Shown here: in pieces, positions 3,663-22,425 of the stretch | How the letters are laid out: every line of letters begins with the position of its first letter | Numbering within the stretch: the stretch's first letter is position 1 | NCBI GenBank assembly: GCA_030535975.1 | Contig: JAUNQW010000004.1 | Coordinates: 34,590 to 58,589 of the forward strand | From: Atopococcus tabaci | Lineage (GTDB): Bacteria; Bacillota; Bacilli; Lactobacillales; Carnobacteriaceae_A | DNA: 24,000 nucleotides | Reading direction: 5' to 3' | Notes under the pieces: generated by a model | Database searches by the model: none | The model's input: only the letters and a program-made list of their open reading frames with translations | What the model was told of the DNA's origin: nothing | Translations under genes and position numbers: made by a program

Positions 3663-6077
3663 CTAGCGAATCTGTGCATTTAACTCATTTTTTAAAGACT
3701 TAAGCACACGCTCAAAATCTTCTTGTACTTCTTCTTCTAATAAAGTTGCGTTAGGATTTTGATAGAAAAGGGAATAAGCCAATGATTTTTTCTTATCATC
3801 TATCCCCTCTCCTTCATAGTAGTCAAATAAATTCACTGACTGCAGCCAAGGGCCGGCTACTTTTTCAATCACTTCAACTATCTCTGAATGAGAGATTCTT
3901 TTATTCACTAGAACAGCTGCATCTCTGGTAATCCCCGGGTACTTAGGAATGTCTTCGACTACTCGGGAAGCTTTTTCTGCATCATGAATTAACTGCAGAT
4001 CAAATTCAAAGACATAGACATCTTCTAAATCTAAAGAATTTGCTAATTTAGGATGAATTTGTCCTATGAAGCCGAACTCATGACCGTGTAAATGCATCCC
4101 AGCTGTCCGACCCGGATGCATGCCTTTTTTCACTGTTAAGGGGCGGAATTCAACTTCTTCAGCCAGATTATATGACTCAAGTAACCCTTCCAGAATCCCT
4201 TTCAGAGTAAAGAAGTCCATCTCTACTACTTCATTGGTCCAGTCTTCGATATAATTTCCCGTCGCCAGAGCAGATACATGCTCCAACTCATCCAGAAGAG
4301 AATCTCCTGGTGTTCCGTGATAGATACGTCCTGTCTCATATAAGAAGATACTGTCAGTAGAACGGGCTCGGTTATACTTTGCGCTGTCTAACAGACCGGG
4401 AAGAATAGATTTCCGTAAAGTTTCATGTTCTTCGCTTAAAGGCATCGCTAAGTTCGTGTCATCACTCTCTGCGATAGAAAATTGATTTGCTTTTTCTTTA
4501 GTCGTTAAGGAATAAGTAATGGCTTGATTAAAGCCGGAACCTTCCATGTAGCGATTGGTTTGGCGAATCATTTTCTGCAGGACGCTTAATTTCCCGGGAA
4601 TAGAGGCTCCTACAGGTAAAGTATTGGGTAAATTATTGTAGCCATAAATACGAGCGACTTCTTCAGCCACATCAGCTTTAATCTTAATATCCCAGCGGCG
4701 CGGAGGTATGATAACCGTGAAGCTGTCACCCTCTCCATCTTTATAGTCAAACTGCAGACGATCAAAGATATCAAAGATAATAATCTTTGTCAGATCCACC
4801 CCGATCACATTATTTAAATAGGATACTGTTAAATTGATTTCAGTATTTTCTGCTGTGACATGGGCAACTTGGCTCATCCCGGATACAACTTTCCCGTCTC
4901 CTAACTGGGATAAGAGCTGGGCAGCATGATTCAAAGCATCAGTTACAACAGCTAGGTTAATCCCTTTTTCGAAGCGGGAACTAGCTTCACTGCGTAAGTT
5001 CAGTTTACCTGCAGTTCTTCTAATCTGCAGAGGATTAAAAACAGCAGCCTCTAAAGCAACATGTTGGGTTGAATGAGAAATATGTGTATTCTCGCCTCCC
5101 ATGACCCCACCCAGAGCAATGGGCTTTTCACCATCCGTAATGACAATATTTTCTGGATCTAATTGTCTTTCTTTGCCGTCCAAAGTAATCAGTCTTTCGC
5201 CTTCTTCTGCTCGTCGGACAACTATTTGATCAGTTCTAATCAAGTCCTTATCAAAAGCATGCAGCGGCTGTCCGTATTCCATCATAATATAGTTGGTAAT
5301 ATCAACTAAATTATCGATCGGACGCATCCCGACAGCCATCAATTTACGCTGCAGCCACATGGGACTTTCTTGAACCTGTAAGTCTTCTATGATCCGCATG
5401 CTGTAAATAGGAGCATCTTCGGCATTATCTACACCGACAGTCAGTATCTCTTCGATGTGACGCTCTTTATTTTCGGTCAGTTCAATTTTTTCAAATTCAG
5501 GAATTTGACTTAAAATCGCCCCTACCTCATGAGCAACACCACGCATACTCAATGCATCTGACCGGTTAGGCGTGAGATCAAAGTCAAAGATGGTATCATC
5601 TAAGCCCAGCACAGGTTTGGCATCTTCTCCCACCATAATGTCATCTGGTAAAACGTAAATTCCTTCAACATATTGTTTAGGAACTACTTTTTCAGGGAAG
5701 CCGAGTTCCTGCAGAGAACAAATCATTCCATTCGACGGATAACCCTGCATTTCACGCTCGCCGATTTCCATTCCTCCAGGCAGACGCGCTCCAGGCATGG
5801 CTACAATAACCTTTTGCCCCTGAGCAACATTGGGAGCACCACAAACAATTTCCTGCAGCTCATCGCGGCCTACATTCACTTTTGCAGCGTGGAGATGGGT
5901 ATCTGGAATAGGTGTACATTCTATAATTTCTCCAACTAGCAGACGAGAAATATCTTCACCTGGTTGATAGACATGTTCGACTTCAATTCCGGTCAAGGAC
6001 AGCTGGTCACCTAATTCTATAGGATCGACATCACTTAAATCTAAATACTCTTTTAACCAATTGAATGATACTAACAT
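3663..6077 (-). CDS. pheT: Phenylalanine--tRNA ligase beta subunit
   Basis: 804 aa. It begins MLVSFNWLKEYLDL, with tRNA-binding, B3/4, B5 and FDX-ACB regions recognisable. It lies immediately downstream of pheS. Confidence 0.97.
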   Translation of the reverse strand: MLVSFNWLKEYLDLSDVDPIELGDQLSLTGIEVEHVYQPGEDISRLLVGEIIECTPIPDTHLHAAKVNVGRDELQEIVCGAPNVAQGQKVIVAMPGARLPGGMEIGEREMQGYPSNGMICSLQELGFPEKVVPKQYVEGIYVLPDDIMVGEDAKPVLGLDDTIFDFDLTPNRSDALSMRGVAHEVGAILSQIPEFEKIELTENKERHIEEILTVGVDNAEDAPIYSMRIIEDLQVQESPMWLQRKLMAVGMRPIDNLVDITNYIMMEYGQPLHAFDKDLIRTDQIVVRRAEEGERLITLDGKERQLDPENIVITDGEKPIALGGVMGGENTHISHSTQHVALEAAVFNPLQIRRTAGKLNLRSEASSRFEKGINLAVVTDALNHAAQLLSQLGDGKVVSGMSQVAHVTAENTEINLTVSYLNNVIGVDLTKIIIFDIFDRLQFDYKDGEGDSFTVIIPPRRWDIKIKADVAEEVARIYGYNNLPNTLPVGASIPGKLSVLQKMIRQTNRYMEGSGFNQAITYSLTTKEKANQFSIAESDDTNLAMPLSEEHETLRKSILPGLLDSAKYNRARSTDSIFLYETGRIYHGTPGDSLLDELEHVSALATGNYIEDWTNEVVEMDFFTLKGILEGLLESYNLAEEVEFRPLTVKKGMHPGRTAGMHLHGHEFGFIGQIHPKLANSLDLEDVYVFEFDLQLIHDAEKASRVVEDIPKYPGITRDAAVLVNKRISHSEIVEVIEKVAGPWLQSVNLFDYYEGEGIDDKKKSLAYSLFYQNPNATLLEEEVQEDFERVLKSLKNELNAQIR

Positions 6078-6080
6078 TTT

Positions 6081-7127
6081 TTACCCCCTGGCCTTGAATT
6101 GTGATAAGAAGCGCTGGTCATTTTGATAAAAGTTTCGAATGTCATTGATTCCATATTTCAGCATGGCCACACGTTCTATACCCATTCCAAACGCAAATCC
6201 ACTATATTGTTCTGAATCTATGCCGGACATTTCCAACACATCTGGATGAACGACACCTGCACCTAAAATTTCAATCCATCCGGATTGCTTACAAATCCGA
6301 CAGCCGCCACCGCCACAGTTAAAGCAAGATACATCCACCTCCACGGAAGGTTCAGTGAATGGAAAGTAGGATGGACGAAGACGAATTTCTCGATCTTCAC
6401 CGAATAATTCTTTAGCAAATAAATTTAATGTTCCTTTTAAATCTGCCAGGGAAATATGATGGTCCACCACGAGTCCTTCAATCTGCTGGAATTGATGGGA
6501 ATGTGTCGCATCATCACTATCGCGTCGGTAGACTTTACCGGGACTGATCATTTTGAGCGGTCCTTCATTAAAATCATGAACATCCATCACACGCGCCTGG
6601 ACAGGTGATGTATGTGTACGCATCAATAGATTATGACCAATGTAAAACGTGTCCTGCATATCGCGGGCTGGATGGTCTTCAGGTAAATTCATCCGCTTAA
6701 AGTTGTAATCATCTTGTTCAACCTCAGACCCGTCGACAACCATATAACCCATTCCGAGAAAAAGTTCTTCAATCTCTTCACGAACCTGAGTGAGTATATG
6801 ACTCGACCCTTTAGGTAACTTTCGGCCTTGCAAGGTGACATCCAAGGTTTCTTCTTTCAGCCGAATATTTAAGAGATCAGCTTCAAACTGTGCCTGCTTT
6901 TCTTCCAAGCTCAAAGTGATCGCGTTTCTTACCTCGTTGCTCAGCTTACCTATCAGTGGTTTTTCTTCATTGGACAGCTGCGACATACCTTTCATGGCAG
7001 TGGTGATCTGTCCCTTACGCCCAAAGTAATCTACTCGTATAGCTTCCAATTCATCTAAATCACTTGCCTGCTCGATAACCGCTAAAGCAGCATCTCGAAT
7101 TTGTCCTAATTCTTGTTCCATCCCCAT
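6081..7127 (-). CDS. pheS: Phenylalanine--tRNA ligase alpha subunit
   Basis: 348 aa. Class II aaRS motifs are present ([39 protein letters not shown]). AAGGAG lies 8 nt upstream of the ATG. Confidence 0.97.
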
Positions 7128-7374
7128 ATTCTATTCTCCTTAAATTTTAAATCAAAAAAACTCGCCCCTGCAAGGGACGAGTTTCCGCGGTTCCACCCTA
7201 ATTTAATTAAAAATTAATTACACTTAAGCATAACGGTGCCGACCGGTTGATGTAACAACTCCAGAATGAATTCATTTAACTTGTGACGCAAAATCTCCCA
7301 GCATTTGATTTTACTCTCTTAGTCATAGTCTTAAACTACTACTTTCCTTCAACGTTTTTAATTATTCGTTTGAT
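7128..7374 (-). promoter_or_regulatory. T-box leader (Phe specifier UUC) controlling pheST
   Basis: On the minus strand the elements appear in canonical order. They are GA/K-turn plus AGUA (GAAGGAAAGUAGUA), the AG bulge UAAGAGAGU, the distal loop GCUGGGAGA, and the specifier loop GAA-UUC-A (UUC at 7268-7270). The F-box CCGUUA follows, then the T-box AAAUUAGGGUGGAACCGCG (7183-7201). The terminator is CUCGUCCC-uugca-GGGGCGAG plus U7 (7154-7183). Confidence 0.92.
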
Positions 7375-12807: not shown

Positions 12808-13443
12808 TTAAATAGTCTGCGCTTCGTAGCCTTTATTTTCTAAAACTTGTAAAACTTCCTGGCTGTCTTCGTTATCCGTTTGAATAACGAGTGTAGAAGT
12901 TGTTCCATCCCGACTGGAGATATAAAGATGGCTGATTCCTACACCTAAACCGGATAAAATACCAGACATTTCATGCAGAACACCTACTTGGTCTGCTACT
13001 TTAACTTCAAGTCGTGCACCGGGTTGACGGTAACCTGTAAGTTCAATTAAAGCAGCAAAGATATCTTTATCCGTAATAATTCCAATGACCTTGTCCTGCT
13101 CATCTACAACGATTAAGACTGATAGACCATAATCATGCATTTGTGCAGCGGCAGCCTCTATCACAATATCTTGACTGATAGTCTGGGCTTCTTTAGTCAT
13201 GAGTTGACCGGCAGTTTGTTTATCCAGAAGATAGTTCATTTCATAGATAGATAAACTTGAGGCGCTCGATGGAGAATTATTAGCAATAATAGCCTCTGTA
13301 ATTAAGCCTTGATAGACATTATTGACATCTACAACAGGGACCCTGTGGAAATCATTGCTTTCCATAATAGAAACAACTTCCGTTAAACGGACATCCGGCT
13401 CTACAGTGACAACGTTTTTTGTCATATAGTCTTTTACTCTCAT
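12808..13443 (-). CDS. CBS-CBS-ACT domain protein (AcuB-like), last gene of the liv operon
   Basis: 211 aa. It has two CBS repeats (MTKNVVTVEPD...HRVPVVD; MTKEAQTISQD...LIVVDEQDKVIGIITDKDI) and a C-terminal ACT-like fold (ARLEVKVADQVGVLHEMSGILSGLGVGISHL). The ATG lies 3 nt after the livF stop, and the SD GGAGG is inside the last livF codons. Confidence 0.8.
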   Translation of the reverse strand: MRVKDYMTKNVVTVEPDVRLTEVVSIMESNDFHRVPVVDVNNVYQGLITEAIIANNSPSSASSLSIYEMNYLLDKQTAGQLMTKEAQTISQDIVIEAAAAQMHDYGLSVLIVVDEQDKVIGIITDKDIFAALIELTGYRQPGARLEVKVADQVGVLHEMSGILSGLGVGISHLYISSRDGTTSTLVIQTDNEDSQEVLQVLENKGYEAQTI

Positions 13444-16876: not shown

Positions 16877-18052
16877 TTATTCAGCTCCTACCTCGTGCGC
16901 CTCTACATCCTCACCATTCTGTACTTCAATGATTGTAACAGTTTTAACTGGATTGTGCATTTCATCAAATGAGAATGTTCCAGTTACTCCGTCAAAATCT
17001 GTCGTTTCAGCTAACGCTTCATTGACAGCTTGTGGATCTGCGCTCCCCGCACGTTCGATCGCTTCTTTCGCTACATATACGCCGTCATAAGCCATTGCAG
17101 CAAACATATCTGCTTCTTTGTCAAATTTTTCTTTGTAGTTTGACATGAATGCTTCTACTTGTTCATTTGCAGATAAGGCAGAGAACTGAGTCGTATAATA
17201 AACATCCGTTAAGCCGGAAGCACCTGCCAATTCATAGAGAGAATCATTTCCAAATCCATCTGGACCTAAAATAGGCTGTGTAATTCCCATCTCGCGGGCT
17301 TGTTTAATGATCGGGCCGGCCTCTTGGTAGTAACCCGGGATAAAGAGGATATCAAAATCTTGTCCTCTTAAGTTAGTAAGAACAGCAGAAAAATCTGTTT
17401 CTCCCGCTGTAAAGTTTTCACTTGCTACTACTTCACCAGGAAAAGCTTCAGTAAATGTCGCAACCAAACCTACTGCATAGTCAGACGAGTTGTCTCCTAA
17501 TACCGCCGCTGTTTGGGCATTTAAGTCCGTCGCAGCAAAATCTGCTAAAGCATTTCCTTGATAAGAGTCCGGATATGCAATTCTCCACCCGTAAGGAATC
17601 ACACTGCCGTCTCCACTTTCAGTAAATGAGTCTAAAGAAGCGGATGGTGACAGTAAAGGCACTTCATGTTGATTAGCTACTTGTAAAGAAGCCACCGCTG
17701 CACCCGAAACATCAGGTCCTAAGATAACGCTTACTTCATCTTCAGTCGCAAGACGCGTCGTTACAGTAGCTGCTTCGGAATCTTCTGAACCATAATCATA
17801 TTCCACAACTTCCACCTGTTTGCCATTGATTCCGCCTGCTTCATTAATTTCTTCCGCGGCTAATTGAACGGCCTGTGCTTGAGGAAGTCCATAAGCAGAA
17901 ACCTCTCCTGATTGTGCGAAAACGGAGCCCAGCTTAATAGTATCAGCTTCATCATAATTGATGTCCGCAGTTCCCCCTCCTGAACACCCCGCTGCCAGAA
18001 GTGCTCCTCCTGCTAAAAGGCCTAATAAACCTTGTCTCAATCTATTCTTCAT
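16877..18052 (-). CDS. livJ: BCAA ABC transporter substrate-binding lipoprotein (LivJ paralog 1)
   Basis: 391 aa. Lipobox LLAAGC, type-I periplasmic binding fold (Peripla_BP_6-like). First gene of the liv operon. SD GGGGAG lies 7 nt from the ATG. Confidence 0.88.
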   Translation of the reverse strand: MKNRLRQGLLGLLAGGALLAAGCSGGGTADINYDEADTIKLGSVFAQSGEVSAYGLPQAQAVQLAAEEINEAGGINGKQVEVVEYDYGSEDSEAATVTTRLATEDEVSVILGPDVSGAAVASLQVANQHEVPLLSPSASLDSFTESGDGSVIPYGWRIAYPDSYQGNALADFAATDLNAQTAAVLGDNSSDYAVGLVATFTEAFPGEVVASENFTAGETDFSAVLTNLRGQDFDILFIPGYYQEAGPIIKQAREMGITQPILGPDGFGNDSLYELAGASGLTDVYYTTQFSALSANEQVEAFMSNYKEKFDKEADMFAAMAYDGVYVAKEAIERAGSADPQAVNEALAETTDFDGVTGTFSFDEMHNPVKTVTIIEVQNGEDVEAHEVGAE

Positions 18053-18086
18053 CTAAAATCTCCCCTTTTTTAATAATAAGTTATCG

Positions 18087-18122
18087 AAAAAAAGACAAGC
18101 CCGGAAATATTGGGCTTGTCTT
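18087..18122 (-). terminator. Intrinsic terminator (attenuator) inside the livJ-1 leader
   Basis: Minus strand AAGACAAGCCC-aauauuucc-GGGCUUGUCUU followed by a U7 run, 35 nt upstream of the livJ-1 ATG. Confidence 0.85.
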
Positions 18123-18188
18123 ATTATGTGAGCCCAACATTTCTAGTTTAAGTAGAAATAGGACCCTTTCTAAAGAGAAAGAATCCTG

Positions 18189-18278
18189 CTACATAATAAT
18201 AGTGACATTATTCACTTGTGGAAAAAGCGAATGGGTACTATAAAATGGATCCATTTGTTGATGTATTTTAGGGCACAT
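18189..18278 (-). CDS. Candidate leader peptide, 29 aa: MCPKIHQQMDPFYSTHSLFPQVNNVTIIM
   Basis: AAGGAGG lies 7 nt upstream of the ATG at 18278, and the stop TAG is at 18189-18191. The last 8 codons are V-N-N-V-T-I-I-M. The first attenuator hairpin starts 2 nt after the stop. Too short for the ORF track. Confidence 0.45.
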   Translation of the reverse strand: MCPKIHQQMDPFYSTHSLFPQVNNVTIIM

Positions 18279-18319
18279 TTCGCTTCCTCCTTTTTATTCG
18301 AAACCAATATGATATGAAT

Positions 18320-18348
18320 ATTATATGAATAATAAAACAAAAAAGCAA
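18320..18348 (-). promoter_or_regulatory. Sigma-A-type promoter of the livJ-1 leader
   Basis: Minus strand TTGCTT (18343-18348) - 17 nt - TATAAT (18320-18325). Confidence 0.65.
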
Positions 18349-18417
18349 TGCCTTTTCCTTCTTATAGAAAAGATTTAAATAGTAATGGCTGTCCATCGCT
18401 TTTATAAATATCAAAAA

Positions 18418-18485
18418 CCGTGTCATTTATTCTACTGTTCTAAATTGTACGTATAATCTAGATATATATTGAATAGTTGACACGG
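18418..18485 (-). repeat. Long inverted repeat / weak terminator after livJ-2
   Basis: CCGTGTCA (18418-18425) and TGACACGG (18478-18485) enclose 52 nt with a second imperfect arm pair (ACTATTC/GAACAGT). A U5 run follows on the minus strand. Confidence 0.4.
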
Positions 18486-18498
18486 ATTTTATTCTCCA

Positions 18499-19668
18499 CT
18501 AATTTGCAGGATCAACTTCATGAATATCTGATGGTGATCCTTCTTGAATTTCAATAATAGATACTGATTTTACAGGGTTATGGTTTTCATCAAATGAGAA
18601 TGTTCCTGTAACACCTTCAAAGTTTTCAGTCTTTGCAATTTCTTCATTAATAGCAACTGGATCCGTAGAACCCGCACGTTCAACTGCTTCTTTAACAATT
18701 TGAACAGAGTCATAAGCCAGGCCGGTAAACATATCTGGTTCAACATCGAATTGCTCACGGTATGAAGAAACAAATTCTTGAGTTGTTGGATCTTCACTTT
18801 CAACAGCAAAGTGTGAGGTATAGAAAACATTCGTCATATTAGCTTCTCCAGCTAAATCATAGATGATTTCATTCCCAAATCCATCCGGGCCTAAGATAGG
18901 TTGTGTAATTCCCATTTCACGAGCCTGTTTGATGATCGGGCCTGCCTGCTCATAATATCCCGGAACATATAGAACATCGAATTCCATATCTTCAATATTA
19001 GTTAATGAAGCAGAAAAGTCTGTCTGGTCAGCTGTAAAGTTTTGTACCGACACAATTTCACCTTGGAAGGTATCTTCGAATGTTTGAGTTAAACCTTGAG
19101 CATAATCACTGGAGTTATCTGCAAAGATAACTGCGTTTTCAGCTTGTAAATTTTCATTAGCAAACTGAGCTAATGCTTGTCCTTGATAAGAGTTGGTGAA
19201 ACATGCTCTGTATGCAAAGTCATACACACTGCCGTCTTCTCTTTCTAAAACACTGTCATCTGTTGCTGTTGGTGAAATGATAGGCACTTGGTTTTGATCT
19301 GCAATAGGAATAGCAGCTTGGAAAGTACCTGTTAATGCAGGCCCTACAATAGCTGATACCTCGTCACCCGTGGTTAAGGTTGTCGTTGATTGAGCAGACT
19401 GCGTTTCATCGGATTGAATATCATATTCAAAAATTTCAAGTTCTTTACCATCAATTCCGCCTTCGTCATTGATTTCTTCAACTGCCATCTTAACGGCATT
19501 GTTCATAGAAGTACCATACCCGGCAGCAGAACCTGTCAGCTCAAACATGGATCCTATTTTAACCGTGTCATCGGAATCGGTCTCTGCTTCTTGACCCCCA
19601 TTAGAACATGCTGCCAGCAACAAACTTGCGGCTACCAGGCCACCTGCAATATATTTTTTTATCTTCAT
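18499..19668 (-). CDS. livJ: BCAA ABC transporter substrate-binding lipoprotein (LivJ paralog 2, orphan)
   Basis: 389 aa. Lipobox LLLAAC. Clearly paralogous to 16877-18052, with an identical block AGPIIKQAREMGITQPILGPDGFGN. No permease or ATPase genes of its own. Confidence 0.88.
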   Translation of the reverse strand: MKIKKYIAGGLVAASLLLAACSNGGQEAETDSDDTVKIGSMFELTGSAAGYGTSMNNAVKMAVEEINDEGGIDGKELEIFEYDIQSDETQSAQSTTTLTTGDEVSAIVGPALTGTFQAAIPIADQNQVPIISPTATDDSVLEREDGSVYDFAYRACFTNSYQGQALAQFANENLQAENAVIFADNSSDYAQGLTQTFEDTFQGEIVSVQNFTADQTDFSASLTNIEDMEFDVLYVPGYYEQAGPIIKQAREMGITQPILGPDGFGNEIIYDLAGEANMTNVFYTSHFAVESEDPTTQEFVSSYREQFDVEPDMFTGLAYDSVQIVKEAVERAGSTDPVAINEEIAKTENFEGVTGTFSFDENHNPVKSVSIIEIQEGSPSDIHEVDPAN

Positions 19669-19696
19669 TTCTTTTCCCCCTTTTTTATCCTAAAGA

Positions 19697-19730
19697 AAAA
19701 TAAAAAGCGAGCCTTTAACCGGCTCGCTTT
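19697..19730 (-). terminator. Intrinsic terminator (attenuator) inside the livJ-2 leader
   Basis: Minus strand AAAGCGAGCC-gguuaaa-GGCUCGCUUU followed by UUAUUUUU, about 30 nt upstream of the livJ-2 ATG. Confidence 0.8.
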
Positions 19731-19797
19731 AATTAGTTAGAAGAGCCTCTTTTCCAATACGAAATGAGACCTCCACCAACATTCTGGTAAGGACTCT

Positions 19798-19869
19798 CTA
19801 CATAACTAATAATAAGAAATCTTCTTTTTGAACAGCAGATGACACGGTTAATTTTATTGTATTGTTCAT
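19798..19869 (-). CDS. Candidate leader peptide, 23 aa: MNNTIKLTVSSAVQKEDFLLLVM
   Basis: AAGGAG lies 8 nt upstream of the ATG at 19869, and the stop TAG is at 19798-19800. The last codons are UUA-UUA-UUA-GUU-AUG. The G of the stop codon is the first base of the first attenuator hairpin. Confidence 0.45.
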   Translation of the reverse strand: MNNTIKLTVSSAVQKEDFLLLVM

Positions 19870-19907
19870 ATCATCCACTCCTTTTCCATTTTCTCTAGAT
19901 GAAACTT

Positions 19908-19935
19908 ATTATATAAGCTTTTAGTTTTTTTGCAA
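19908..19935 (-). promoter_or_regulatory. Sigma-A-type promoter of the livJ-2 leader
   Basis: Minus strand TTGCAA (19930-19935) - 16 nt - TATAAT (19908-19913). It starts 1 nt after the stop of the upstream ABC ATPase gene. Confidence 0.65.
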
Positions 19936-19936
19936 G

Positions 19937-20611
19937 CTAAATAAATTCTGCAGAACTCAAAACGCGTGTGCTGTACTCCTCAGCGAAGTTGATATCATGT
20001 GTAACTACGATAATTCCTGTACCTTCTGCAGCAATGCTTTGAATCATCTCTCCCACAATACTTGCCGAGTCTTTATCTAAAGCAGACGTCGGCTCATCAA
20101 AGCATAATACTTTCGGATCCAGCATCATGCTTCGAGCGATAGCAACTCTCTGGGCCTGCCCTCCGGACAAGGTCTTTGGCATAGCATTAATTTTCTCACC
20201 TAAACCCATCTGCTCCAATAAAGCAACAGCTTTTTCACGAATCGCTTGTTTAGAAAGAATTTTTTGTGCTAAAGGTGCTTCCATCAGATTTTCTAAAGCG
20301 GACATATTAGGAAAGAGTTGATAATCCTGGAAAACCATACCAATCTCATTGTCGTAAGCCCAGCGTTCACTTCCACTTGTATAAGTGACCTGTCCATTTT
20401 CGTCTGTATCCACTAATTTAGCATCATTGATCATTACACAGCCCTGGTCAATTGGAATTAAAGAATTTAAGATTCGAATAAAAGTTGTTTTACCTGTCCC
20501 TGACTCACCAACAAGTGCAACAATTTCTCCTTCTTCCATTTTAAAACTAAAATTATCTAAAATGACTGCATCATCAAATTTTTTAGATAGATTCTTTACT
20601 ACTAAAGTCAT
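19937..20611 (-). CDS. Polar amino acid ABC transporter ATP-binding protein
   Basis: 224 aa. Walker A GESGTGKTT, signature LSGGQAQRVAIAR, Walker B LCFDEPTSALD. SD AGGAGG. Confidence 0.9.
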   Translation of the reverse strand: MTLVVKNLSKKFDDAVILDNFSFKMEEGEIVALVGESGTGKTTFIRILNSLIPIDQGCVMINDAKLVDTDENGQVTYTSGSERWAYDNEIGMVFQDYQLFPNMSALENLMEAPLAQKILSKQAIREKAVALLEQMGLGEKINAMPKTLSGGQAQRVAIARSMMLDPKVLCFDEPTSALDKDSASIVGEMIQSIAAEGTGIIVVTHDINFAEEYSTRVLSSAEFI

Positions 20612-20620
20612 GACGGCCTC

Positions 20621-21256
20621 CTAATATTCCACTCTCTGTTCAACTTTATTCAATGCAAAAGTTACGACTCCGGTCACCAGTAAATAAAGGACTCCTACCG
20701 CTAAGAATGGCACCAGCGTAGCGTAAGTATTTACTGCAATCTGACCTGCACGCAGCAGCTCCCCGATCCCTATAACATACACAAGTGAAGTGTCCTTAAC
20801 CAAGGAAATAACTTCATTTCCCACCGAGGGCATAACAACCCGGAAGACCTGGGGCAGAATAATTCTTCTGAACCCTCTAACTTTACCGATTTGCAAAACA
20901 TGGATGGCTTCAAACTGACCAGCTGGAATGGAATTAATACCTCCTCGGAAAATTTCAGCAAAATAAGCTGCATAATTTAGAATGTAAGCGAGCAGGGCTG
21001 CTGAAAAACGAGCCATGGAGATTCCCACAAAAGGGAGTCCAAAGAAAACAAACATAAGTTGAAGCATTAAGGGCGTTCCACGCATCACATATATATATAT
21101 TCCAATCAACCCTTGCAGCCATTTAGGTCCAAAGACACGCAGTACACCTAAAATCAAACCTAAAGGCAGACTCGCTAGGAGAACAATAGTAAATAAAGAT
21201 AGAGTTGTTTGTAGACCATTCATTAAAGATGGCCATATTTGTATGATTAAGTCCAT
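20621..21256 (-). CDS. Polar amino acid ABC transporter permease (HisM/GlnP family)
   Basis: 211 aa, 5 TM segments, with an EAA-like loop (ALLAYILNYAAYFAEIFRGGINSIPAGQFEA). Confidence 0.9.
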   Translation of the reverse strand: MDLIIQIWPSLMNGLQTTLSLFTIVLLASLPLGLILGVLRVFGPKWLQGLIGIYIYVMRGTPLMLQLMFVFFGLPFVGISMARFSAALLAYILNYAAYFAEIFRGGINSIPAGQFEAIHVLQIGKVRGFRRIILPQVFRVVMPSVGNEVISLVKDTSLVYVIGIGELLRAGQIAVNTYATLVPFLAVGVLYLLVTGVVTFALNKVEQRVEY

Positions 21257-21284
21257 GTTTTTTATTCCTCAATTCTGATGAGCT

Positions 21285-22088
21285 TTATTCTTCAGAGAAC
21301 CACTTACTATAAATTTCATCATAAGTGCCATCTTCGATAATTTCTTGTAAAGAAGCGTCAAACTCTTCTTTGAAAGCTGTGTCTTCCTGGCGCATACCTA
21401 CAGCATAGACTTCTTCGCCAAAATTATCCTCCAAGACACGGTAAGCAAAGTCATCATTCAAGCTCATGTAATAACGCCCCATCACTTCATCCACAACAAT
21501 GGCTTCAGCACGGCCGCTGATCAAATCATTGAAAACATCGTTATTTGACGGGTACTGCACAACTTCTCCATCGGCGAATAAAGCTGGATAATCTCCCTCA
21601 TCATCATTGATTGCATCTACTGCACTTGATGATTGTTGAGCGGCAACAACTTTACCTTCTAAATCCTCTTTCGTCTGGATATCACTATCTTCAGCTGTTA
21701 CGATCATTTGACTATTTTCCATATAAGCTTCTGAAAACAGTACTTTTTCTTCACGCTCAGGTGTTACTGTGTATCCATTCCAAATTAAATCGATATTACC
21801 AGCATCTAACTCAGTTTCTTTTAGAGACCAGTCGATGGCTTGAAAATCCATTTCAATGCCTAATCTTTGACCCACTTCCTTAGCCAGATCAATATCAAAT
21901 CCAACCAGTTCACCATTATCATCTCTAAAACCCATCGGCGGGAAAGTATCATCCAATCCAACAATTATACTTTCATATGAAGCTGAGGAATCACCAGCTC
22001 CTTCCTCACTCGTTTCACCATTACCACAAGCAGCTAAAACTAAACTTACCGACAAAATCGACATGAAACTTACTAACCATTTTTTCAT
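21285..22088 (-). CDS. Polar amino acid ABC transporter substrate-binding lipoprotein (SBP family 3)
   Basis: 267 aa. Lipobox VLAAC. GLDDTFPPMGFRDDNGELVGFDIDLAKEV and DLIWNGYTVTPEREEKV are typical of the family. Confidence 0.88.
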   Translation of the reverse strand: MKKWLVSFMSILSVSLVLAACGNGETSEEGAGDSSASYESIIVGLDDTFPPMGFRDDNGELVGFDIDLAKEVGQRLGIEMDFQAIDWSLKETELDAGNIDLIWNGYTVTPEREEKVLFSEAYMENSQMIVTAEDSDIQTKEDLEGKVVAAQQSSSAVDAINDDEGDYPALFADGEVVQYPSNNDVFNDLISGRAEAIVVDEVMGRYYMSLNDDFAYRVLEDNFGEEVYAVGMRQEDTAFKEEFDASLQEIIEDGTYDEIYSKWFSEE

Positions 22089-22425
22089 TTATATTCCCCC
22101 TTATTAAATTTATCATTTGATTTACAAAAAAATAAAATCGTCCTTTAATGAGCTGGCCTTTTTCAGCTCATTAAAGGACGACTCTGCTAAGGAGCGTGTT
22201 CCCACCTTTTTTTACAGCTTTTTTACAAAAGCTGCCTCTGTGCGTCTTTTCAGACGCTAACCTGCTAACGGAAGGCTCCGGAAATGTTTACTTTTCAAAT
22301 GATTCAACATTCTGCTCCAAAGATGTGTTTCAAAGTCTGATTGTCATCATTTTCACCGGGCATGATGTCTCTAAAAGCAACACGACTTCTACTCTTTCTT
22401 TTCACTGCATTATAAAGATATTACA
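22089..22425 (-). promoter_or_regulatory. T-box leader (predicted His specifier CAC) controlling the polar amino acid ABC operon
   Basis: On the minus strand: GA/AGUA elements (GUGAAAAGAAAGAGUAGAAG), AG bulge UUAGAGA, and stem CAUCAU/AUGAUG capped by the distal loop GCCCGGUGAAA. The specifier loop is UUGAAA-CAC-A (CAC at 22325-22327). The antiterminator is AAAGG-[UGGGAAC]-ACGCUC...GAGuCGU-CCUUU (T-box core 22194-22210). The terminator has a perfect 18-bp stem (22138-22155 / 22164-22181) followed by a U run. Confidence 0.85.

Follow-up and report, generated by a model that had tools for sequence, protein, structure and literature searches.

Upstream of livJ-2, a gene of Atopococcus tabaci for the substrate-binding lipoprotein of a branched-chain amino-acid ATP-binding cassette (ABC) transporter, lies a leader that is in all likelihood a leucine-sensing, ribosome-mediated (leader-peptide) transcription attenuator, which would tie expression of the gene to the supply of charged tRNA-Leu. 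From sequence comparison and RNA folding, we put the probability of this reading at roughly 0.85. The leader occupies 19669-19935 on the minus strand of a 24,000-nucleotide (nt) stretch (contig JAUNQW010000004.1, positions 34,590 to 58,589), which is called the window and numbered from its own first letter. Promoter, translatable short open reading frame (sORF), run of cognate codons, terminator and mutually exclusive helices, as an attenuator needs them, are all found by sequence or folding. A first-pass annotation of the same DNA had proposed the ribosome-mediated, Leu-sensing reading and suggested a comparative alignment, an Rfam scan and constrained folding as checks; the reading is supported by the results, to which a long-range helix, P1, is added that the annotation did not contain.

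Anatomy of the livJ-2 leader

The elements of the leader were located by script and by reading of the minus strand between 19500 and 20100.

19939-19937 (-), stop codon TAG of the upstream ABC ATPase gene, 1 nt before the promoter
19930-19935 (-), -35 hexamer TTGCAA, a consensus-level match only
19908-19913 (-), -10 hexamer TATAAT after a 16-nt spacer, a consensus-level match only
19878-19883 (-), Shine-Dalgarno sequence AAGGAG of the sORF, 8 nt ahead of its ATG
19798-19869 (-), sORF of 23 codons, MNNTIKLTVSSAVQKEDFLLLVM and stop, ending UUA UUA UUA GUU AUG UAG
19807-19815 (-), regulatory codons UUA UUA UUA (three Leu), followed by GUU AUG UAG
about 19790-19811 (-), 5' strand of P1: last Leu codons, GUU, AUG (unpaired), stop codon and start of arm A
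19785-19798 (-), arm A, GAGAGUCCUUACCA, the 5' arm of hairpin A:A'; its first base is the G of the sORF stop codon
19766-19778 (-), arm A', UGGUGGAGGUCUC, partner of A or alternatively of B (helix H2)
19751-19764 (-), small hairpin P3, UUUC-guauug-GAAA, kept in both states
19749-19738 (-), segment B, GAGGCUCUUCUA
about 19731-19751 (-), B plus S2 (AACUAAUU), the 3' strand of P1
19704-19730 (-), intrinsic terminator with a stem of 10 base pairs (bp), AAAGCGAGCC-ggttaaa-GGCTCGCTTT in DNA letters and AAAGCGAGCC-GGUUAAA-GGCUCGCUUU as RNA; its GAGCC is the target of the antiterminator
19696-19706 (-), U-run of the terminator, UUUUUAUUUUU
19668 (-), ATG of livJ-2, 35 nt beyond the terminator
18499-19668 (-), livJ-2 (Peripla_BP_6), the regulated gene

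Promoter, Shine-Dalgarno sequence and sORF were found where the first-pass annotation had placed them, except that the gap between TATAAT and AAGGAG measures 24 nt instead of about 32 nt. In a consensus scan of 17900-20100, this promoter is the top one of nine sigma-70-like matches, agreeing at 10 of 12 positions. A promoter-like -35/-10 pair stands at the equivalent place in 26 of the 28 homologous leaders described below.

The terminator could in principle merely end the upstream ABC operon, which is headed by a T-box. In that case livJ-2 would owe its expression to leaky read-through or to a promoter that escaped recognition, and the sORF and the helices would be chance features. The interval from the ATPase stop codon (19937) to 19730 contains no other terminator, so that the hairpin would indeed also stop transcripts of the upstream operon. 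However, a promoter-like site lies upstream of the terminator, and the 35 nt that separate the latter from the start of livJ-2 leave too little space for another promoter. Moreover, the whole module of promoter, sORF, hairpins and terminator precedes livJ beside unrelated or divergent upstream genes at other loci (L002, L024-L031), and chance is excluded by covariation and by the cross-detection of covariance models reported below. We therefore regard this explanation as extremely unlikely. The more modest proposal that read-through from the T-box operon would also enter the attenuator holds as a structural possibility, but the gene order on which it depends is present only in the window and in L001. 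What is conserved across loci is the leader's own promoter, and not the gene order of the T-box operon.

A family of homologous leaders

The comparison rests on 28 homologous leaders, which were gathered from species-representative genomes, a pattern scan of metagenomes, LivJ homologues and the contigs that encode these. They come from Atopococcus, Alkalibacterium iburiense, Aerococcus, metagenomes and other assemblies. The metagenome scan contributed two real new leaders (L022 and L023); another of its matches, L021, was rejected as a chance match in GC-rich coding DNA. Thirteen leaders are Leu-type (the window leader and 12 others), 13 are Ile-type, and two have mixed branched-chain runs. 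The ends of the encoded peptides are as follows (a stop codon follows the last residue).

Before the first livJ (13 leaders): LLLVM, LLLVI, LLLLV, LLLLLA, NLLLL(L)VK, LLLLYVK, LLLLLLVR
Before the next livJ (12 loci) or before a CBS+ACT gene (L024) (13 leaders): TIIM, TIIV, IVIIM, IIIIIN, VIIIIV, IVIIIV, VIIIIT, VVIIIT, IIIVIV, IIILIV, VIIIM
L022, before livJ-livHMG (one leader): LLLIIIP
L023:928-1056 (-), before a class IV (branched-chain) aminotransferase gene (one leader): ALVILEVI, with mixed Leu, Val and Ile codons

A Shine-Dalgarno sequence, a start codon and an open sORF of 23-39 codons are present in 28/28 leaders (23-37 codons in the 13 Leu-type ones). Within a few nt of the sORF, all of them carry hairpin A, a small hairpin, a GGGCUC-like segment B and a terminator. 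The N-terminal part of the sORF is variable, and the branched-chain codon run always falls within the last 8 codons. In the Leu-type leaders, the only conserved part of the sORF is its C-terminal end, where 3-6 Leu codons are kept in 13 of 13 cases, which supports the proposal that the Leu-Leu-Leu run beside the stop codon is the sensor. The codons of the run change synonymously among UUA, CUU, CUC, UUG and CUA, and this variation points to selection on codon meaning. In the closest relative, L001, an uncultured Atopococcus with a LivJ identity of 92%, the orthologous sORF ends in KEDVLLLVI, and in L002 it ends in NNDLLLLV. The GUU valine codon behind the run is GCU in Aerococcus, with a matching change from AAC to AGC in its P1 partner.

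The pattern of conservation also bears on a product-based role, in which the small hydrophobic peptide encoded by the sORF has a function of its own, or the prematurely terminated leader RNA serves as a trans-acting small RNA, with attenuation as a secondary effect. Some of the leader sORFs are annotated by gene callers, and trans-acting RNAs derived from attenuators are known, for example rnTrpL in Sinorhizobium (PMC6614838). Nevertheless, neither the length of the peptide (23-39 residues) nor its N-terminal sequence is conserved, only the terminal run is, and a role in trans would supplement the attenuator in cis and not replace it. This alternative to the leucine-sensing attenuator appears highly unlikely.

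Leu-type and Ile-type leaders belong to the same RNA family; the first-pass annotation had noted that the livJ-2 leader shares the geometry of the livJ-1 leader. Two covariance models were built, R1 from 15 Ile-type or mixed leaders and R2 from Leu-type leaders only. R1 finds every Leu-type leader, including that of the window (19699-19819 (-), 35.1 bits, E about 2-3e-5), and R2 detects the Ile-type leaders, among them the livJ-1 leader of the window with 44.9 bits. Searches with R1 and R2 found no further copy in the window. In an Rfam 15 scan, nothing at the livJ-2 leader or at 13 related loci reaches the gathering score of any family. Even at E <= 10, the enterobacterial Leu_leader and the Lactococcus leu/phe leader are absent from the matches at the livJ-2 leader; the only leader families that overlap it do so at chance level (Phe_leader on the opposite strand with 18.6 bits and a gathering score of 55, L20_leader on the minus strand with 17.7 bits and a gathering score of 58.7). 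There is no T-box (RF00230) at 19669-19935, the two T-boxes of the window being located elsewhere (7170-7361 and 22171-22414), and no CodY box (AATTTTCWGAAAATT) was found in 19669-19960 with up to 3 mismatches. We found no paper that describes leader peptides for livJ or for these lineages. By sequence, the livJ leaders are thus an RNA family not found described, present in Carnobacteriaceae and Aerococcaceae, that appears to apply a classical mechanism mostly to genes for transporter binding proteins.

The specificity of the leader tracks the paralogue, in that Leu-type leaders precede the first livJ and Ile-type leaders the second one (12 loci, with L024 as the exception). The Carnobacteriaceae LivJ proteins behind Leu and Ile leaders form sister clades. 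Of the three tandem livJ genes in Aerococcus (L013:2700-7079 and L014), the first follows a Leu leader (ending LLLLLA) and the second an Ile leader (NIIIIIN), and no leader precedes the third. Since all three Aerococcus LivJ paralogues group together in a neighbour-joining tree, the Leu/Ile split may have arisen there independently of the split in Carnobacteriaceae.

Helices and the predicted switch

The region 19815-19696 has a minimum free energy of -39.5 kcal/mol (z = -5.1), and none of 200 dinucleotide shuffles folds as well. Its predicted fold consists of P1, a three-way junction and the terminator. In P1, the last codons and the stop codon of the sORF pair with the segment just 5' of the terminator. 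In 27/28 leaders, the common minimum free energy fold has P1 enclosing hairpin A and the small hairpin, followed by the terminator; the window leader shows it once the far upstream part of the sORF is excluded from folding. The two strands of P1 differ between leaders and yet remain complementary:

W1: 5' strand UUAUUAUG, 3' strand CAUAAUAA
L022: 5' strand UUAUUCCG, 3' strand CGGAAUAA
L024: 5' strand GUUAAGUAGGA, 3' strand UCCUACUUAAC
L025: 5' strand GUUAAGUAAGA, 3' strand UCUUACUUAAC
Aerococcus: 5' strand AUUAGCU, 3' strand AGCUAAU
L023: 5' strand CCCAG, 3' strand CUGGG, which sequesters segment B directly

Plain MAFFT alignments analysed with RNAalifold gave only H2 and the terminator; P1 and A:A' were lost because the register differs by 1-4 columns from one subclade to another. 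For this reason, testing P1 column by column on the Leu-type alignments A1 and A5 was given up, and an alignment-free duplex test and an alignment guided by a covariance model were used instead. In the duplex test, the strands of 19 non-redundant leaders were paired with their cognate partners or with partners permuted within the type (20000 permutations):

P1: cognate -15.8 kcal/mol, permuted -12.5 kcal/mol, 0/20000 as good
A with its partners: cognate -16.8 kcal/mol, permuted -13.7 kcal/mol, 0/20000 as good
Antiterminator: cognate -14.2 kcal/mol, permuted -12.6 kcal/mol, 18/20000 as good
Terminator (control): cognate -19.5 kcal/mol, permuted -13.0 kcal/mol, 0/20000 as good

In the model-guided alignment of 25 leaders, 87.4% of the cells are paired, compared to 70.3% in shuffles and 39-51% in slid controls. 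Double changes occur at 25 of the 32 pairs (P1 6/7, A:A' 5/10, terminator 13/13). Helix A:A', which begins at the G of the stop codon as the first-pass annotation had stated (19798-19785/19778-19766), is paired in 88% of the cells of this alignment and covaries among the leaders, with a compensatory change from A-U to G-C at its base in L001.

The alternative helices vary less. H2, the pairing of A' with B, was picked by RNAalifold on two independent plain MAFFT alignments and is pairable in 95.6-97.4% of the cells, with a core that hardly varies. It had been described as a helix of 10 bp; the pairing is present, but in constrained folds it extends to about 17 bp (UUGGUGGAGGUCUCAUUUC..GAAAAGAGGCUCUUCUAAC). 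The antiterminator core is pairable in 100% of the Leu-type cells and invariant. In the Ile-type leaders, the antiterminator is paired in 87.4% of the cells, compared to 79.9% in shuffles, and three of its pairs show double changes.

Strong conservation of sequence blocks across genera, beyond the needs of a single helix, is a feature that would also fit a riboswitch, or a leader recognised by an RNA-binding antiterminator protein. The binding site would be the three-way junction (GGAUUCU / RGUCCUAUUUC / GGGCUC), which adjoins the terminator as in many riboswitches, and the sORF would be incidental. However, the conserved blocks are accounted for by the double duty of each segment: A' has A and B as its partners, and B has A' and C, the 5' arm of the terminator. 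A switch operated by a ligand or protein would leave unexplained why the one conserved part of the sORF is a run that encodes Leu before one paralogue and Ile before another, why Leu codons are exchanged for synonymous ones, and why Shine-Dalgarno sequence and start codon are kept in all leaders. The absence of a leader at the gathering score of any Rfam family also speaks against a ligand switch, which we consider very improbable.

According to the preferred reading, that of a leucine-sensing attenuator, transcription would start from the leader's own promoter (19935-19908), a ribosome would load at AAGGAG/AUG, and it would translate the 23-codon sORF while RNA polymerase makes the next 100 nt. 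The RNA would form a relay of overlapping complements: S1 (sORF end and stop codon), A, A', B, S2, C and D (the 3' arm of the terminator). In this relay, the B/S2 region has three alternative pairings, with A' (H2), with the sORF end (P1), or through GGCUC with the 5' arm of the terminator (antiterminator).

Three states can be envisaged. When Leu is plentiful, the ribosome would reach the stop codon and its footprint would hide arm A, so that A' pairs with B. C would remain free to pair with D, and the terminator would stop transcription 35 nt before livJ-2. When the ribosome is gone or the leader untranslated, P1, the pairing of S1 with B and S2, would close the three-way junction, B would be unavailable, and the terminator would again form. 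Because the ribosome-free leader is predicted to fold into P1 and the terminator, termination would be the default. Finally, when charged tRNA-Leu is scarce, the ribosome would stall with its A-site on a UUA codon, where it hides P1's 5' strand and leaves arm A exposed. A:A' would then form and release B, whose GGCUC would pair with GAGCC in the 5' arm of the terminator while the 3' arm is still to be made, and polymerase would read through into livJ-2. Hairpin A with the adjoining AUUUC may double as a pause site that couples ribosome and polymerase. The NusG-type pause motif TTNTTT has no exact match in most leaders, and the pausing role is speculation.

Folding with a ribosome mask agrees with this scheme in cut transcripts only. 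The transcript was cut before the 3' arm of the terminator, and everything up to the A-site plus 12 nt was masked. The predictions for the window leader reproduce the chain of exclusions from A:A' through H2 and antiterminator to the terminator that the first-pass annotation had drawn:

No ribosome: terminator arm free
A-site on UUC, UUA, UUA or UUA: A:A', P3 and GGCUC:GAGCC
A-site on GUU, AUG or stop: extended H2, terminator arm free

The pattern is stable for footprint edges from +9 to +15. L024, L026, L027 and L031 show it just as sharply, and there too the permissive A-site positions coincide with the Leu run. When the A-site is placed three codons ahead of the stop, 24 of the 28 leaders are predicted to form an antiterminator hairpin that reaches from B into the terminator arm.

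Several observations weigh against the leucine-sensing attenuator. The full-length leader at equilibrium keeps the terminator whatever the ribosome mask. The switch must therefore be kinetic, and we infer that it works in this way in vivo, with Leu as the signal. In the trp leader, the terminator is likewise the more stable helix. Next, the antiterminator hairpin of the window has only 5 bp and -6.9 kcal/mol, as opposed to -17.2 kcal/mol for the terminator, so that the first-pass annotation was right to call it the weakest link. The caution holds for the window copy and not for the family. The window and L001 carry a trimmed antiterminator, and by predicted energy that of the window is the weakest of all. 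In the livJ-1 leader, the antiterminator GAAAUGUUGGGCU:AGCCCAAUAUUUC has 13 bp and is far stronger, and in L028-L030 it adds S2, paired with a segment, AUUAAGAGG, that mimics the sORF end, and attains -18 to -22 kcal/mol, as much as the terminator. Furthermore, the ribosome-free cut fold already favours the antiterminator in several siblings (e.g. W1, L013, L030). In these, default termination would need P1 to form first, as is plausible because polymerase reaches its 3' strand earlier than the terminator arm. The alignment guided by the covariance model was fitted to the structure under test, and covariation cannot prove H2 or the antiterminator, because their cores are nearly invariant. Finally, such AT-rich genomes presumably use UUA more than any other Leu codon, so that the run contains no rare codons.

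Genomic context and paired Leu- and Ile-type leaders

The leader and livJ-2 stand between two transporter operons. Directly 3' of the livJ-2 stop codon, at 18413-18485 (-), a long hairpin closed by CCGUGUCA:UGACACGG is followed by UUUUU (z = -4.2). It is also kept in L001 and is probably a terminator that makes livJ-2 a single-gene unit. The first-pass annotation had called livJ-2 an orphan, which it is not really; the gene lies directly upstream of livJ-1-livHMGF. The order behind livJ-2 is hairpin, second leader, livJ-1, livH, livM, livG, livF and a CBS+ACT gene. The second leader is the Ile-type sibling.

18087-18348 (-), Ile-type leader of livJ-1-livHMGF with promoter, sORF, hairpin A, P3, B, S2 and terminator
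18278-18189 (-), sORF of the livJ-1 leader, ending NNVTIIM (Ile codons) and stop
18120-18087 (-), terminator of the livJ-1 leader

In the window, the CBS+ACT domain gene (12808-13443 (-)) is the last of the liv operon. The CBS+ACT gene of Alkalibacterium iburiense (L024:4565-5197) follows directly behind an Ile-type leader, without an intervening livJ or livHMGF, and its product may be a regulator linked to branched-chain amino acids.

Upstream of the livJ-2 leader, at 19937-22088, lies a polar amino-acid ABC operon (SBP_bac_3, permease and ATPase). The T-box at its head (22171-22414 (-), 113 bits) shows GAA-A-CAC-A at the specifier position of the Rfam alignment, read by eye, which suggests a His (CAC) specifier. 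The second T-box (7170-7361 (-), 115 bits) stands upstream of pheS (6081-7127) and pheT (3663-6077), in the usual arrangement.

The Leu run of the livJ-2 leader (UUA UUA UUA, 19800-19815) and the Ile run of the livJ-1 leader (AUU AUU, 18189-18200) are one (UUA)n repeat in different frames, set apart by one extra G that the Leu leader has ahead of the shared 3' end UUAUGUAG. This suggests that a frameshift, by insertion or deletion of a single nt, could convert an Ile sensor into a Leu sensor. On the other hand, UUA and AUU are presumably common in AT-rich genomes, and the shared repeat may be a coincidence.

Among known systems, the enterobacterial leu leader (leuL; Rfam Leu_leader) is similar in its short peptide with consecutive Leu codons, its alternative hairpins and its intrinsic terminator. 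Read-through occurs in that system when the ribosome stalls at the Leu codons. Unlike leuL, the livJ-2 leader is found in Lactobacillales, has no Leu_leader match in Rfam, and is directed at an uptake binding protein and not at biosynthesis. Its Leu run is 2 codons away from the stop codon, which directly adjoins the first hairpin. The Salmonella and E. coli his leader uses a relay in which A:B, C:D and E:F compete with B:C and D:E. The livJ-2 leader resembles it in that a multi-segment relay, with two partners for each segment, passes the position of the ribosome to the terminator. In contrast to the his leader, with which it shares no sequence relationship, it adds the long-range helix P1 that closes a three-way junction, and has the codon run at the very end of the sORF. 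Leader-peptide attenuation, including that of the leu leader, has been reviewed (PMC6123439).

Known or predicted leader peptides serve branched-chain amino-acid biosynthesis in S. aureus, Listeria, Lactococcus, Streptococcus and Corynebacterium, and in S. aureus ilvD and Listeria ilv-leu, Ile/Leu-rich leader peptides before a terminator respond to the supply of branched-chain amino acids (PMC5794164, PMC6123439). The latter two belong to biosynthetic operons, contain mixed Ile and Leu codons and act jointly with CodY. The livJ leaders differ in being attached mostly to binding-protein genes and in existing as separate Leu-only and Ile-only versions on tandem paralogues, and the window leader is without a CodY box.

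In relatives, no such leader was found at the livJ loci of Trichococcus, Carnobacterium jeotgali, Lacticigenium and Atopococcus tabaci; the Trichococcus and Carnobacterium loci lack the sORF, the terminator and any R1 or R2 match. The livJ genes of Trichococcus and Carnobacterium, which are of the CodY type, belong to the same gene family, have the same genomic role and also take branched-chain amino-acid status as the input. CodY binds Ile. The Trichococcus loci (L006:2886-2900 and others) carry a CodY-box-like site, AATTGTCAGAATATT, with 2 mismatches, at the promoter next to the -10 region. Since the Trichococcus and Carnobacterium loci have a CodY-box-like site instead of the leader, the livJ control system appears, by sequence, to have been exchanged between related genera. 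A CodY-box-like AATTTTCAGATAATA was also seen by eye at L025:~2640-2656, just upstream of the -35 hexamer of a Leu-type leader. Some family members may combine CodY control and attenuation.

The mechanism in itself is unsurprising, and the most interesting feature of the leaders is the existence of paired Leu and Ile versions on tandem paralogues. A survey of 2010 stated that attenuation control was known for very few ABC transporters (PMC2965389). In Gram-positive bacteria, reports of attenuation by amino-acid leader peptides concern mainly biosynthetic operons, and here the mechanism is predicted at uptake binding proteins in relatives of lactic acid bacteria. Homologous leaders that differ functionally only in Leu versus Ile codons, and that are mostly tied to their own livJ paralogue, would amount to a natural swap of specificity. 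The two types could possibly be used as compact orthogonal sensors for charged tRNA-Leu and charged tRNA-Ile, and the collected leaders could serve as seed alignments for a new RNA family.

On balance, we lean towards the view that Carnobacteriaceae and Aerococcaceae share an undescribed RNA family in which the specificity of an attenuator has been re-tuned between tandem copies. A leader with a Leu run would control one binding protein, a leader with an Ile run a second one together with the shared permease and ATPase, and the shortage of a charged tRNA would select the binding protein that feeds a single transporter. If this is true, the LivJ paralogues should differ in ligand preference.

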